From a virus (Duplodnaviria; Heunggongvirae; Uroviricota; Caudoviricetes), in the IMG/VR virus record IMGVR_UViG_2740892014_000012: a stretch of 16,521 nt of DNA; one strand, 5' to 3'. Below, one piece after another: positions 2,332 to 7,288 of this stretch. The position numbers and the translations under genes are program-made. The notes below the pieces were generated by a model that was given only the letters and a program-made list of their open reading frames with translations, had not been told where the DNA came from and did not search any database. How positions within the stretch are numbered: position 1 is the stretch's first letter; every line of letters begins with the position of its first letter.

Positions 2332-2356
2332 AATAAAAAAGGAGCCTGTAGCTCCC
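2332..2356 (-). terminator. Putative intrinsic terminator inside the leftward (pL) operon
   Basis: On the minus strand: a GGAGC/GCUCC stem with 5-nt loop followed by TTTTTTATTG, about 22 nt downstream of the stop of the 2378..2659 ORF. Confidence 0.5.
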
Positions 2357-2377
2357 TGATAATTTTGCTTTTCATGT

Positions 2378-2861: not shown

Positions 2862-3022
2862 ACCGCCCCCCGTTTATTATTTATCTCCTCAGCCAGCCGC
2901 TGGGCTTTCAGCGGATTTCGGATAACAGAAAGACCGTGAAATACCCAGCCTCGCTTTGTAACGGAGTAGACGAAAGTGATCGCGCCTACCCGGATATTAT
3001 CGTGAGGATGGGTCATCGCCAT
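2834..3022 (-). CDS. Hypothetical small phage protein (62 aa)
   Basis: Start overlaps the 3' end of exo by 10 nt, as for the small ORF directly after exo in lambda. No motif recognised. Confidence 0.45.
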
Positions 3023-3693
3023 TGCTCTCCAAATACAAAACCAATTTCAGCCAGTGCTTCGTCCATTTTTTCGATGAACTCCGGCACCATCTCGTCAAAA
3101 CTCGCCATGTACTTTTCATCCCGCTCAACCACGACATAATGCAGGCCTTCACGCTTCATTCGTGGGTCATAGTTGGCAAAGTACCAGGCATCTTTTCGTG
3201 TCACCCACATGCTGTACTGCACCTGGGCCATGTAAGCCGACTTTATGGCCTCGAAACCACCGAGCCGGAACTTCATGAAATCCCGGGAGGTAAACGGGCA
3301 TTTCAGCTCAAGGCCATTGCCGTCACTGCATAAACCATCGGGAGAGCAGGCGGTGCGCATACTTTCGTCGCGATAGATGATCGGGGATTCAGTAACATTC
3401 ACGCCGGAAGTGAATTCAAACAGGGTTCTGGCGTCGTTCTCGTACTGTTTTCCCCACGCCAGCGCCTTAGCATTAACTTCCGGAGCCACACCGGTGCAAA
3501 CCTCAGCCAGCAGGGTGTGGAAGTAGGACATTTTCATGTCAGGCCACTTCTTTCCTGAGCGGGGCTTTGCTATCACGTTGTGAACTTCTGAAGCGGTGAT
3601 GACGCCGAGCCGTAATTTGTGCCATGCATCATCCCCCTGTTCGACAGCTCTCACGTCGATCCCGGTACGCTGCAGGATAATGTCCGGTGTCAT
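3013..3693 (-). CDS. exo: Lambda exonuclease (Red alpha), 226 aa
   Basis: Protein [40 protein letters not shown]...FVFGEQWR is near-identical to lambda Exo as recalled. ATGA start/stop overlap with bet. Confidence 0.97.
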
Positions 3694-4475
3694 GCTGCCA
3701 CCTTCTGCTCAGTGGCTTTCTGTTTCAGGAATCCAAGAGCTTTCACTGCTTCGGCCTGTGTCAGTTCTGACGATGCGCGAATGTCGCGGCGAAATATCTG
3801 GGAACAGAGCGGCAATAAGTCGTCATCCCATGTTTTGTCCAGGGCAATCAGCAGAGTGTTAATCTCCTGCATGGTTTCATCGTTAACCGGAGTGATGTCG
3901 CGTTCCGGCTGACGTTCCGCAGTGTATGCAGTATTTTCGACAATGCGCTCGGCTTCATCCTTGTCATAGATACCAGCAAATCCGAAGGCCAGACGGGCAC
4001 ACTGAATCATGGCTTTATGCCGTAACATCCGTTTGGGATGCGACTGCCACGGCCCCGTGATTTCTCTGCCTTCGCGAGTTTTGAATGGTTCGCGGCGGCA
4101 TTCATCCATCCATTCGGTAACGCAGATCGGATGATTGCGGTCTTTGCGGTAAATCCGGCACGTACATGATTCATTGTCCTGCTCAAAGTCCATGCCATCA
4201 AACTGCTGGTTTTCATTGATGATGCGGGACCAGCCATCAACGCCCACCACCGGAACGATGCCGTTCTGCTTATCAGGGAAGGCGTAAATTTCTTTCGTCC
4301 ACGGATTAAGGCCGTACTGGTTGGCGACGATCAGCAATGCGATGAACTGCGCATCGCTGGCATCACCTTTAAATGCCGTCTGACGAAGAGTGGTGATCAG
4401 TTCCTGTGGGTCGACAGAATCCATGCCGACACGTTCAGCCAGCTTCCCAGCCAGCGTTGCGAGTGCTGTACTCAT
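3690..4475 (-). CDS. bet: Red beta single-strand annealing protein (Bet), 261 aa
   Basis: [59 protein letters not shown]... is near-identical to lambda Beta as recalled. Confidence 0.97.
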
Positions 4476-4480
4476 CCGTT

Positions 4481-4777
4481 TTATACCTCTGAATCAATAT
4501 CAACATGGTGGTGAGCAATGGTTTCAACCATGTACCGGATGTGTTCTGCCATGCGCTCCTGAAACTCAACATCGTCATCAAACGCACGGGTAATGGCTTT
4601 TTTGCTGGCCCCGCAGCGTTGCAAATGATCGATGCAGAGTGATTCAAACAGGTGCTGTGGAAGACCTTTTTCCATGTCGTCTGCCAGTTCTGCCTCTTTC
4701 TCTTCACGGGCGATCTGCTGGTAGTGACGCGCCCAGCTTTGAGCCTCAAGACGATCCTGAATGTAATAAGCGTTCAT
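4481..4777 (-). CDS. gam: Gam, RecBCD inhibitor (GamS form, 98 aa)
   Basis: [54 protein letters not shown]... matches lambda GamS as recalled. Upstream in-frame sequence ...YFHSHFQEF resembles the long-Gam leader. Confidence 0.95.
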
Positions 4778-4852
4778 GGCTGAACTCCTGAAAATGGCTG
4801 TGAAAATATCGCCTGCGAAATGCCGGGCTGATTAGGTAAACAGGAAAGGGGA

Positions 4853-5143
4853 TTAGTGATTCAGGCCGTTGCCGCGTCCGTCGAGAAAAACTTCCACGAG
4901 CAAATCACGGGTATAAGTGCGCTCGATGCCGCGATGCAGATAAAGCCGTCCGCGTAAATTAGCTGATGCAGTCCAGGTACCATCTTTGTGTTTGACCAGC
5001 ATTCCTGGCATGACCGCACCGCGATTAACGGTCTGCGTTCCGTAATGTTGATGAACCATAAAAACTCCTGCCCGTAAGCTGGGCTGCTGAACATATAGAG
5101 ACTTCTGCGCGTATTCAGGCGGTGGATGGCCGCCGGTTGTCAT
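4853..5143 (-). CDS. Hypothetical protein (96 aa), first ORF downstream of pL, in the kil/cIII position
   Basis: Codon composition looks coding in this frame. No similarity recognised to lambda N, cIII or Kil as recalled. An internal start (MVHQHY...) is possible. Function unknown. Confidence 0.45.
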
Positions 5144-5334
5144 AACTAAGCCGCCTCGTTGAAGCGACTAAGGTATGAAATGTTGAGTTAATTTCAGCTG
5201 GTCACACCGACGTTCACGCGTCCGTTTCACCCCTCGCACTCCCCGAAGCCTGCTGAAATTCAAACTGCGGATCTAAGCGGTCATCGCAACGGTGAATCAG
5301 GTAGTTGCCGTATCGTTGTGTTGTTGCGATGAAC

Positions 5335-5415
5335 TTATTTAAAACTATAGTTGTTTTATCGTCAACAACAAAAGTTGTTTTATTGGTTGTTTTAGATATA
5401 ACTGGTTGTATTTAG
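5335..5415 (-). promoter_or_regulatory. pL-like promoter with OL operator cluster
   Basis: Minus strand reads GTTGTTGACGATAAAACAACTATAGTTTTAAAT: TTGACG, 17 nt, TTAAAT. This is nearly identical to the pR module on the other side of cI (GTTGTTGACTAAAAACAACCATAGTTTTAATC). Repeated GGTTGT(T/A) half-sites in both orientations at 5349..5413. Confidence 0.55.
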
Positions 5416-5505
5416 GATGGATTTATTTTGTGACTTGAATCGCATAGCGATAACTGAAGCGAGGTTATGGTGGTTTTTTTAACGGTGTGTGTGATGAGGG
5501 GAGGG

Positions 5506-5533
5506 CAAAAGAAAACCCGGCACGGTGACCGGG
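5506..5533 (-). terminator. Intrinsic terminator downstream of cI
   Basis: On the minus strand: CCCGG..CCGGG stem (5-bp GC stem, 8-nt loop) followed by TTTTCTTTTG, about 120 nt after the cI stop. Confidence 0.55.
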
Positions 5534-5654
5534 ATTCTTACGCCGTTAGGTAAAGATATTATTGCGGTGGCTTAATATTACTACCTAGAGCAAAGATAGG
5601 AATTAGTTCTTTACTGAATGAGCACAATGCCCAGTTGATAATTTTTAATTGGTA

Positions 5655-6344
5655 CTACCCATGCTTCCTATATGTCTGCGGCATGCTCCCAATAACCTTA
5701 CCGAAGATGAACACCCGGTTCATCTCGTCTTTCTCGATCGGGTCCCACGGTGAGTAGCTTTTGTTATCAGAGATGACCAGCAGCTTATCCTTCATCATTT
5801 GCAGGCGCTTTACATGGGCTGTGTCGTCGTACAGAAACGCATAGATACCATCACCGTCGAAAGATTTAACTGTGATATCAACGAACAGCAGATCACCTGG
5901 TTCGATCGTTCCTGACATGCTGTCACCACGCACGTTAATGATGCGGATATTTTCCGCCTTCCTACCATCGAACATGTGACGAGCATCGTCAAACGAGTAC
6001 TCAACCGAGCGTAGAACTTCTACAAACTCACGGTTGATGACTCCCGGCCCAGCACTGACTTCTATATCAAGAACGTCAATCTTGAAGTATTTGGAATGGC
6101 TGACAGTTGATTGTATTGGTTGCACTGTACTGTCTGACATATTTCCAACGCCAGAAGATAACCATTCTGCGCGCACACCCAAAGCGTTCGCGATCTCCAC
6201 GATTTTAGTTGTTTGATTAGCTTTCCCTGTTTCGATTTTCTGAATAGCAGCCTGGCTAACCCCGACCAAATCCCCAAGCGCCTTTTGTGTAAGGCCTCGC
6301 GCTAATCTGGCTTCTTTAAGTCTTTCTGAGAGTGTTGTTTTCAT
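5655..6344 (-). CDS. cI: cI-type prophage repressor with N-terminal HTH and C-terminal LexA-like S24 autopeptidase domain (229 aa from the proposed start)
   Basis: HTH LTQKALGDLVGVSQAAIQKIETGK; S24 motifs VRGDSMSGTIEPGDLLFVD (Ser) and HVKRL (Lys); candidate Ala-Gly cleavage site in VSAGPG. The ORF-track start at 6410 lies inside the operator/promoter; the ATG at 6344..6342 (MKTTLSERLKEA...) sits 6 nt after a TACATT -10-like hexamer, suggesting a leaderless pRM-type transcript. Confidence 0.85.
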   Translation of the reverse strand: MKTTLSERLKEARLARGLTQKALGDLVGVSQAAIQKIETGKANQTTKIVEIANALGVRAEWLSSGVGNMSDSTVQPIQSTVSHSKYFKIDVLDIEVSAGPGVINREFVEVLRSVEYSFDDARHMFDGRKAENIRIINVRGDSMSGTIEPGDLLFVDITVKSFDGDGIYAFLYDDTAHVKRLQMMKDKLLVISDNKSYSPWDPIEKDEMNRVFIFGKVIGSMPQTYRKHG

Positions 6345-6448: not shown

Positions 6449-6679
6449 ATGAACCCAGCTATCAAAACAGCGATCAATATCGTTGGTTCACAAAAGAAAC
6501 TGGGCGCTGCTTGCGAAGTTTCACAGCAGGCCGTCTATAAGTGGCTTCACAACAAAGCAAAGGTATCCCCTGAACATGTCGGCAGCATTGTTACGGCTAC
6601 TGGTGGAGTAGTGAAGGCATACCAGATTCGCCCGGATCTTCCGAAGTTGTTTCCACACACCGAAAAGAACGCAGCTTAA
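6449..6679 (+). CDS. cro: Cro-like HTH regulator (YdaS/Cro family), 76 aa
   Basis: First gene of the rightward operon, divergent from cI; HTH-like segment QKKLGAACEVSQQAVYKW; good RBS. Confidence 0.78.
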   Translation: MNPAIKTAINIVGSQKKLGAACEVSQQAVYKWLHNKAKVSPEHVGSIVTATGGVVKAYQIRPDLPKLFPHTEKNAA

Positions 6680-6691
6680 ATTTCCATTTCA

Positions 6692-6704
6692 CGCTCTTTA
6701 ACAA
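6692..6704 (+). promoter_or_regulatory. boxA-like element (CGCTCTTTAACAA) in nutR position
   Basis: Matches the boxA consensus (rrn/phage CGCTCTTTAACAA) 13 nt downstream of the cro stop. No convincing boxB hairpin follows. Confidence 0.45.
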
Positions 6705-6748
6705 TAAGCAATCAACTTAACAGTCAATTCAAACTAAAGGAGTCAATT

Positions 6749-7288
6749 ATGCAACCACTTACATACCAACAGACTAGCGGATTTAGCCCGACTGCGGTGA
6801 TAAATCGTTCTCAAACAAAACAGGTGCCAGGCCACGAAAAAATCCGTGATGCCGTCCGCGCCTGGTCGGCTGTAGATAATCAGGATGTCGTTGCCACACT
6901 CATTGTGAATGAGTATCTGGAGCAGGGCGGCGGCACCATCGATTTCCCTGATGATGTCAGCCGTGCACGCCAGAAGCTGTTCCGCTTCCTCGATAACAAA
7001 TTCGATTCTGAAAAATACCGAAATAACGTGCGTGAACTGACCCCGGCAATTCTGGCGGTACTACCGCTGGAATATCGCGGTTACCTGGTTGAGCAGGATA
7101 GCTTCATGGCTAGGTTGGCTGAAATGGAAAAGGAACTCAGTGAGGCAAAACAGGCTGTCATTCTCAACGCACCACGCCACCAGAAACTGAAGGAAATTAG
7201 TGAAGGTATTGTGTCGATGTTTCGTGTGGACCCAGATCTGGCTGGTCCATTGATGGCGATGGTTACTACCATGCTGGGGGCGATATGA
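6749..7288 (+). CDS. YdaT-family protein in the cII position (putative CII-equivalent regulator), 179 aa
   Basis: Position immediately after cro; motifs NEYLEQGGG and LTPAILAVLPLEYRGYL resemble YdaT-family proteins as recalled; AAAGGAG RBS 6 nt upstream. Family assignment is from memory, not from a search. Confidence 0.55.
   Translation: MQPLTYQQTSGFSPTAVINRSQTKQVPGHEKIRDAVRAWSAVDNQDVVATLIVNEYLEQGGGTIDFPDDVSRARQKLFRFLDNKFDSEKYRNNVRELTPAILAVLPLEYRGYLVEQDSFMARLAEMEKELSEAKQAVILNAPRHQKLKEISEGIVSMFRVDPDLAGPLMAMVTTMLGAI

Follow-up and report, generated by a model that had tools for sequence, protein, structure and literature searches.

The DNA analyzed here, a 16,521-nt window from IMG/VR virus record IMGVR_UViG_2740892014_000012, is the early region of a lambdoid prophage, as judged from Pfam and PHROGs profile searches of its open reading frames (ORFs), and the element in question is the segment that lies at positions 5144–5335, between the early leftward promoter pL and the genes transcribed from it. 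We find that this segment is the upstream two-thirds of an untranslated early-left (pL) leader of about 270 nt, and that the element hosting it is a DLP12/phi80-related lambdoid prophage without an N/nut system. The leader contains two long-range stems, P1 and P2, followed by a two-hairpin motif, H1/H2, which is the single demonstrably conserved RNA structure within it. Nothing found in this analysis shows the leader to be a new antitermination RNA. The explanation that we favor, and to which we give an even chance of being right, is that the leader is a composite 5′ untranslated region (5′UTR) of kil in an N-less lineage, acting locally on its own mRNA.

The pL promoter was read from the sequence of the minus strand (5337–5365): a −35 element TTGACG (5365–5360), a 17-nt spacer and a −10 element TTAAAT (5342–5337), with operator-like repeats that are mirrored at pR (I1/I6), which bears out the pL-like promoter proposed in a preliminary description of this DNA. 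Transcription is predicted to start at A5330. In heteroimmune relatives of the Perceval type, everything upstream of about position 5329 is swapped, and their own −10 element predicts the same start position. That neither N nor nutL lies between pL and gam, as had also been proposed, stands as well: (i) no N-like protein gene directly follows pL, the first gene being kil; (ii) no homolog of lambda N, HK022 Nun or phi80 'N' was detected anywhere in the window by tblastn (best E value, 0.28), Pfam or PHROGs searches; (iii) the leader contains no boxA (YGCTYTTTA, at most one mismatch), and in place of the boxA plus boxB hairpin of a nutL it has a sole small hairpin, P3, with a 6-nt loop and no partner site. 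As for the ORF-free leader of about 190 nt initially described, no ORF of 40 or more residues is present in 5144–5335; the length had been underestimated, since the real start of kil is the ATG at 5059, which makes the untranslated leader about 270 nt long.

The kil gene (4853–5059, minus strand) encodes a 68-residue protein of the KilR/phi80 type; its ATG at 5059 is preceded by the Shine–Dalgarno sequence AGGAG (5069–5065). It forms part of a 96-codon ORF (4853–5143), residues 20–96 of which match the Kil family phrog_294 (E = 1.2e-38), and the protein is 36% identical to KilR of the Rac prophage (BLASTP, E = 9e-13). The match to the whole domain profile, the likeness to a studied member and the position directly upstream of gam place it in the Kil family, so that the 96-residue protein can no longer be put forward as a divergent antiterminator. 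By homology, Kil would be an inhibitor of FtsZ and cell division, and the RefSeq annotation gives a 207-bp gene for a 68-residue 'cell division inhibitor'. The 96-codon ORF is an artifact and the true product is the 68-residue Kil. Indeed, the Citrobacter, Kluyvera, Silvania and Enterobacter homologs begin at MVHQ/MIHQ with their own Shine–Dalgarno sequence ahead; the divergent E. coli LR-50 has a stop codon 10 codons past the upstream ATG (5143); and this ATG forms, in the predicted fold, one strand of the basal helix of H1.

H1 (5139–5178, minus strand) comprises a core stem, in which 5169–5161 pair with 5157–5149, and a basal helix pairing CAUA (5177–5174) with UAUG (5144–5141). H2 (5118–5134, minus strand) is the hairpin GGCGG[CCAUCCA]CCGCC, the sequence of which is near-invariant across phages. 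The order of the motif, as given by aligned relatives, is CAUACC box, H1, UUAGUUAUGACAACC, H2 (also written CAUACC-H1-UUAUGACAACC-H2). A pattern scan of IMG/VR returned at least 120 matching stretches; note that H2 was part of the search pattern, and that BLAST independently found H2 in phi80, HK639, HK225 and ENT1. Among the matches listed, to which the motif counts given here refer, H1 occurs with at least seven different stem sequences, and the 27 distinct sequences show compensatory two-sided changes in six of the nine core pairs. In the same set, 98.4% of the H1 cells are paired versus 82.3% in shuffles (0/500), and the covariation score is 0.502 versus 0.177 (0/500), slid controls giving 0.08 at most. 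In 45 of the 75 loci with enough flank, the motif comes right after the T-run of a terminator of the intrinsic kind, with very diverse genes ahead, and in 27 of the 75 it follows a P1–P2 leader; a Kil homolog is encoded at most 1.6 kb downstream in 80 of 99 loci. An Rfam 15 scan of the whole window gave zero hits at E ≤ 1, and for 5030–5345 at E ≤ 10 the hits were limited to miRNA and CRISPR families on the opposite strand, attributable to chance; hence no Rfam family matches the window or the leader. A conserved leader peptide, MTTGGHPP(P), was considered and rejected: with respect to the ATG, the block that follows H2, GCGCAGAAGUCUUG, occurs in three different frames, and the spacer length varies. 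The motif lies at 5100–5180 (minus strand) in the window, at 8390–8476 in L097, at 33040–33160 in L005, at 3480–3640 in L095 and also in loci L100–L219. That it serves for RNase III cleavage or for Rho entry would be a guess.

Both inverted repeats initially described in the leader are perfect and in place, and they are longer than had been claimed: 10 bp for P1 (TCATCGCAAC/GTTGCGATGA, 5332–5323 with 5290–5281) and 9 bp for P2 (AATTTCAGC/GCTGAAATT, 5260–5252 with 5198–5190). In the minus-strand transcript, P1 (5281–5332) is the stem UCAUCGCAAC/GUUGCGAUGA, which starts from the predicted 5′ end and encloses a C-rich 32-nt loop, and P2 (5190–5260) is the 9-bp stem AAUUUCAGC/GCUGAAAUU, which closes a G-rich 53-nt domain containing the small hairpin P3 (5209–5222, minus strand; GACG[CGUGAA]CGUC). 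P1 and the H1/H2 motif are both richer in C than in G, with ratios of 1.2–1.6. In dinucleotide shuffles of the 192 nt (n = 2000), the probability of one stem of at least 9 bp is 0.047 and that of two such stems 0.0005. The leader can thus be called structured with respect to its two real stems, but not with respect to its folding energy, which is ordinary (z = −0.51 for 5331–5144 and +0.51 for 5330–5185).

What variation there is within the stems is mostly wobble-compatible. P2 is reduced to 8 bp in most relatives owing to T5190C, and the one-sided changes A5254G and, in LR-50, A5194G retain G–U pairs. In LR-50, the arms of P1 are intact while its loop is altered and 8 nt longer, a pattern that is the best indirect support for P1. 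P3 is invariant across 31 distinct leaders and hence uninformative; a P3-like 13-mer within gene O (8082–8094) is at chance level. An apparent covariation between 5246 and 5225 was discarded as linkage, these positions being unable to form a helix. The leader has no duplicate resembling putR or nutR: its local alignment to the rightward transcript scored as the shuffle mean, and a covariance model of the leader, applied to the window and to related phages, matched the leader only.

The phages most similar to the window are PhiR34_1 (99.2% over 4700–5700) and Turner, and Perceval, 4A7, Lambda_4C10 and several PhiR phages have kil and the leader in common with the window at 92–98%. Within E. coli, the P1–P2 leader is present in 2210 of 5426 complete genomes (41%), including ST131 and O157 strains; the segment is 95–100% conserved and present as one copy per genome, which rules out P2 as a repeated mobile element. 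Its conservation is no higher than that of the flanking kil and gam genes. A literature search on early antitermination in phages of the Perceval/4A7/PhiR type turned up no paper.

Sensitive blastn searches split the leader into three parts: phi80-like pL and first transcribed bases, a central part of about 130 nt, and a block (5180–5060) common to phi80, HK225, HK639 and Enterobacter phage ENT1. The last block aligns over 5180–5120 with the phi80 sequence located just past tL1A (84% over 63 nt). The central part, from the P1 loop to P2, has no homolog outside Escherichia and no phi80 counterpart. At the other end, the leaders of phi80, HK639 and prophages of four other genera all start with CAUCG. 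In phi80, the order is pL-nutL-'N'-tL1A-motif-tL1B-gp43-kil, tL1B being annotated as rho-dependent. The deletion of the N-to-cIII block initially considered is upheld in one respect, since both the pL-nutL-'N'-tL1A order of phi80 and the consensus boxA kept in the window agree with an N-type system having been lost or replaced, but no clean junction was found: relative to phi80, the two ends of the leader align and the center has no counterpart, so that a simple deletion was rejected.

These comparisons reveal a phage supergroup in which pL is followed by a variable slot, then by H1/H2, then by kil-gam-bet-exo. In relatives, the slot contains either nutL and small genes, or assorted cargo genes closed off by an intrinsic terminator, or else a put RNA; in the lineage of the window it contains P1 and P2 only, which makes kil the first gene after pL, with P2 at the position equivalent to that of the terminator preceding the motif in other phages. 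A put RNA is found in 23 of 90 motif-bearing loci. The order in L109 and L112 is pL-put-motif-small ORF-kil, and there the put RNA (91–94 bits) ends 47 nt before the ATG of the motif.

Two other kinds of leader were noted in passing. The phi80-type nutL leader has boxA GCTTTTTAACAAC, a small hairpin and about 200 nt of conserved GC-rich sequence (L097, 8800–9200, minus strand; L095, 2240–2530; L115, 5787–6050), and the first gene behind it varies: the 98-residue 'N' in phi80, gp40 in HK225 and an unrelated 63-residue ORF in L115. No match was found between phi80 'N' and N families; its assignment looks positional, and the nutL leader itself may carry the function. The kil leaders of Citrobacter and Kluyvera (L007, L010, L012 and L013, around 2890–2990) have an extra insert of about 110 nt that features a long-range stem, GCUUCGCGGUGGUG...CACCACCAGCGAAG, as well as an inner hairpin. 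In Enterobacter and Silvania (L008 and L009), the leaders are about 80 nt long and without this insert; like those of Citrobacter and Kluyvera, they start with CAUCG and contain GUUCCGCCAGCCUGGCGACAAGG.

On the rightward side, the interval between cro and cII, which is the nutR position, contains a consensus boxA (CGCUCUUUAACAA; 6692–6704, plus strand). No other exact boxA match occurs in the window, and this one, CGCTCTTTAACAA, is kept in 47 fetched loci; it is identical at 12 of 13 bases to what we take to be the rrn boxA consensus, UGCUCUUUAACAA. In three sibling loci of the L024 type, boxA is followed by a boxB-like hairpin, GACUG[AUUAA]CAGUC, and in L103, L115 and L204 by GGCUGA[AUUA/GUAA]UCAGCC. 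In the window and most siblings, the 12 nt between TTAACAG direct repeats are missing (6705–6735 region), which removes the boxB-like hairpin. A boxA devoid of its hairpin appears to fit the loss of an N-type system, and the retained boxA may be vestigial.

Taken as a composite 5′UTR of kil, the leader would operate as follows. Transcription from pL would traverse the leader without modification and continue into kil-gam-bet-exo, given that no intrinsic terminator occurs before the one at 2357–2339 and none is found in the leader itself. P1, paired from the first nucleotide, would shield the transcript from 5′-end-dependent decay. H1/H2, itself part of a C-rich stretch, would act as a checkpoint, linked to RNA processing or to Rho, that limits the synthesis of the toxic Kil, an idea that comes from the Rho/NusG silencing of Rac kilR: the latter is silenced by NusG-dependent termination and induced when NusG falls (PMC5793797). 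The N system would have been lost, leaving a boxA without a hairpin at the nutR position. The absence of a strong intrinsic terminator between P and Q in PhiR34_1, a close and functional phage, fits such an N-independent design.

Several points weigh against this reading. The functions given to P1, P2 and H1/H2 are ones that we infer. No compensatory change was found in any pair of P1 or P2 among the 31 distinct leaders, the variation being too low for a test; the minimum-energy fold from +1 chooses neither P1 nor P2; and in a third promoter type (L052, L049 and L079) the 5′ arm of P1 is replaced, leaving a stem of 5 bp. Termination raises a further difficulty. The first good leftward intrinsic terminator (2339–2357, minus strand; an 8-pair stem followed by a T-run) comes after exo and the orf60a/63/61 homologs and before a dksA-like gene, xis and int. 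On the other side, a strong bidirectional terminator (13529–13549) is located behind a moron in the interval from P to nin/Q, opposite a convergent esterase gene; if it were not read through, transcripts from pR would be stopped there before reaching Q. In an N-less phage without antitermination, Q would therefore be poorly expressed from pR and xis from pL, which would leave room for an unrecognized antitermination device; the boxA at the nutR position may likewise be functional and recruit NusB/NusE.

A possible but less probable explanation is that P1–P2 is a functionless scar, nutL/N or a cargo block having been lost or replaced by illegitimate recombination and the resulting segment being carried along because the kil module on one side and the immunity region on the other are under selection. 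The mosaic junctions that bound the segment (at +1 to +3 and at the CATACC box) would be expected of such a scar, and so would its restriction to Escherichia, the tolerance of a stop/sense polymorphism and of 1-, 5- and 8-nt indels, the lack of covariation and the energy z-scores close to 0; moreover, leaders of about 80 nt suffice in the Enterobacter and Silvania relatives. A scar, however, does not readily account for two perfect stems of at least 9 bp in 192 nt, seen in 0.05% of shuffles, for the preservation of the P1 arms in LR-50 next to a diverged and longer loop, or for in-stem changes that mostly preserve wobble pairing. Leaders from other genera, which also begin with CAUCG, can likewise form a 5′-proximal hairpin, as judged by eye.

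We consider it unlikely that P1–P2, alone or together with H1/H2, is a cis-acting processive antiterminator RNA, that is, a put-like but sequence-unrelated element through which the nascent leader modifies RNA polymerase and allows read-through of a Rho-dependent barrier before kil and of the terminator preceding xis and int. When no N is found in a lambdoid phage, authors usually propose a put-like RNA (PMC12315714), and the position of the leader is indeed that of such an RNA: putL begins at +1 directly downstream of pL (PMC9378689), as does P1–P2. The phage is devoid of N, the two stems are statistically real, terminators lie downstream in both operons, and the segment is both well conserved and present in 41% of the complete E. 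coli genomes. A bona fide put occupies exactly this slot in the sibling phages L109 and L112, flanked there by the same type of pL and by H1/H2, and single-put phages exist (HK639, from its annotation, and L109), so that the missing second copy is not decisive.

The likeness to put was assessed with a covariance model built from HK022 putL and putR and HK639 putL, and with the put signature, namely stem I (GNCGAACGGCGCGNC..AACCAUGCGUCGG) and stem II (GGCGGG.UCAGGA.GA.CGGCAAU). The model recovers its training sites at 71–98 bits and 23 further put RNAs at 56–94 bits; with filters off, it finds nothing on the minus strand of 5144–5335, and motif searches of the window stay at chance level. The best match in the window, 7406–7469 on the plus strand within gene O (14.1 bits, rough E value 0.07), has no put signature motif and is probably due to chance. 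As to the two stem-loops of put, the leader has perfect stems from +1, but these have large loops, no covariation and no energetic support. Its architecture is also different, with domains of 52 and 71 nt compared to a total of about 70 nt for put. Thus, the put-like cis RNA suggested in the preliminary description finds no backing from the put model, Rfam, a second copy or covariation, yet the slot is the one filled by put in L109 and L112. The absence of compensatory changes, a folding energy not better than that of shuffles and the replacement of the P1 5′ arm in one promoter type also speak against an antiterminator, as does a conservation that does not exceed that of kil and gam; and since the slot holds plain cargo genes in other phages, its occupancy does not imply function. 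The bolder version, in which P1–P2 would be a third, sequence-unrelated class of phage cis-acting antiterminator RNA that replaces put or N/nutL, with H1/H2 as the checkpoint to be overcome, strikes us as quite improbable.

The last alternative concerns the only ORF of at least 20 residues in 5144–5335, a 31-residue arginine-rich ORF with a TTG start (5263–5168, minus strand; MNFSRLRGVRGVKRTRERRCDQLKLTQHFIP). Its KRTRERR segment resembles what we take to be the arginine-rich motifs of lambda N (TRRRERR) and P22 N, a GGAG lies 8 nt ahead of an internal GTG, and the segment is included in 128–139-residue 'Kil' annotations of relatives, among them Perceval and PhiR47_2. Both this ORF and the corresponding 'N-Kil fusion' were rejected as coding sequences: position 5170 is polymorphic, with a stop codon or CAG (11 versus 38 distinct leaders), three independent frameshifting indels occur among the leaders, one variant destroys the internal GTG, and the changes in LR-50 are mostly non-synonymous and hit the arginine-rich motif itself (R to C). 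Searches for relatives of the 31-residue ORF gave no hidden Markov model family match and no BLAST homolog outside the group, and RefSeq has no gene at this position. That the leader encodes a very small N-like peptide, binding P3 as boxB and fused to Kil wherever the stop codon is CAG, is therefore barely credible, all the more so as a CGN-rich hairpin sequence yields arginine codons by itself.

The remainder of the window is organized as follows. On the minus strand lie int (1–1143), exo (3013–3693), bet (3690–4475), gam (4481–4777; Pfam Gam, E = 4e-63) and a cI-type repressor gene (5655–6343/6410). Next are a YdaS-type cro (6449–6679) and a YdaT/CII-like gene (6749–7288), after which come O and then P, an inverse-autotransporter moron (9252–13517), the esterase gene (13554–14597, minus strand) and, after it, ninB, a ninE-like gene and rusA. 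The nin/Q/lysis region of PhiR34_1 is DLP12-like. Between cI and pL, positions 5538–5613 match the 3′ end of gevA (GevAT toxin–antitoxin) of phage PhiR47_2, and a terminator (5516–5533, minus strand) adjoins this gevA-like remnant; Perceval carries other genes at the same place. The interval looks like an emptied moron slot in which a remnant and a terminator are left. The autotransporter segment (9252–13549) stands in place of ren and the start of the nin region and encodes a 1421-residue, invasin/intimin-like protein with Big_1 repeats. Antisense ORFs recur within this gene every 357 nt (10732, 11089 and 11446), pointing to near-identical tandem domain repeats.

The lambda N/nut paradigm is usually assumed for lambdoid prophages. 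With kil placed first behind an N-less leader in 2210 of 5426 genomes, the question arises of how delayed-early expression, excision and Q are timed. H1/H2 is a covarying hairpin motif, absent from Rfam, that lies upstream of kil across nut-containing, put-containing and N-less phages, and the slot ahead of it is a defined place where put, nutL, cargo genes and P1–P2 alternate. An antiterminator role for P1–P2 would establish a new class of RNA; otherwise, the prophage would represent a natural N-independent lambdoid design.

Compared to lambda, the window has the same operon logic from pL to gam-bet-exo, near-identical recombination genes and a boxA at the nutR position; it differs by the absence of N, of nutL, of a boxB at either site and of the N-to-cIII block, and its Kil is of the KilR type rather than the lambda type. 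Rac is likewise an N-less prophage with a homologous Kil, YdaS/YdaT-type cro and cII genes and a toxic kil gene preceded by a long, structured 5′ region, but the two leaders have no sequence similarity and Rac has other genes between its repressor gene and kilR. The 5′UTR of Rac kilR yields an Hfq-associated small RNA (sRNA), KilS (PMC8175672); it is annotated about 175 nt upstream of kilR in E. coli K-12 (L220, 2906–3003, minus strand), an indication that kil 5′ regions can yield sRNAs. The leader is not a KilS homolog: blastn (word size 7) with the 98 nt of KilS gave no meaningful match in the window, and KilS ends at its own terminator, whereas the leader has none. With phi80, the window shares homologous pL and first transcribed bases, the H1/H2 block (located after tL1A in phi80), the same Kil family and the same types of cro and cII; it differs in having P1–P2 in place of the boxA/nut core in the pL leader, the 98-residue 'N' and tL1A. 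Finally, although the leader has no sequence or model similarity to the put RNAs of HK022 and HK639, and its domains are larger, differently built and without covariation, it resembles them in lying directly after pL in a lambdoid phage without N, in having two stem-forming segments and in occupying the very slot that put fills in L109 and L112.

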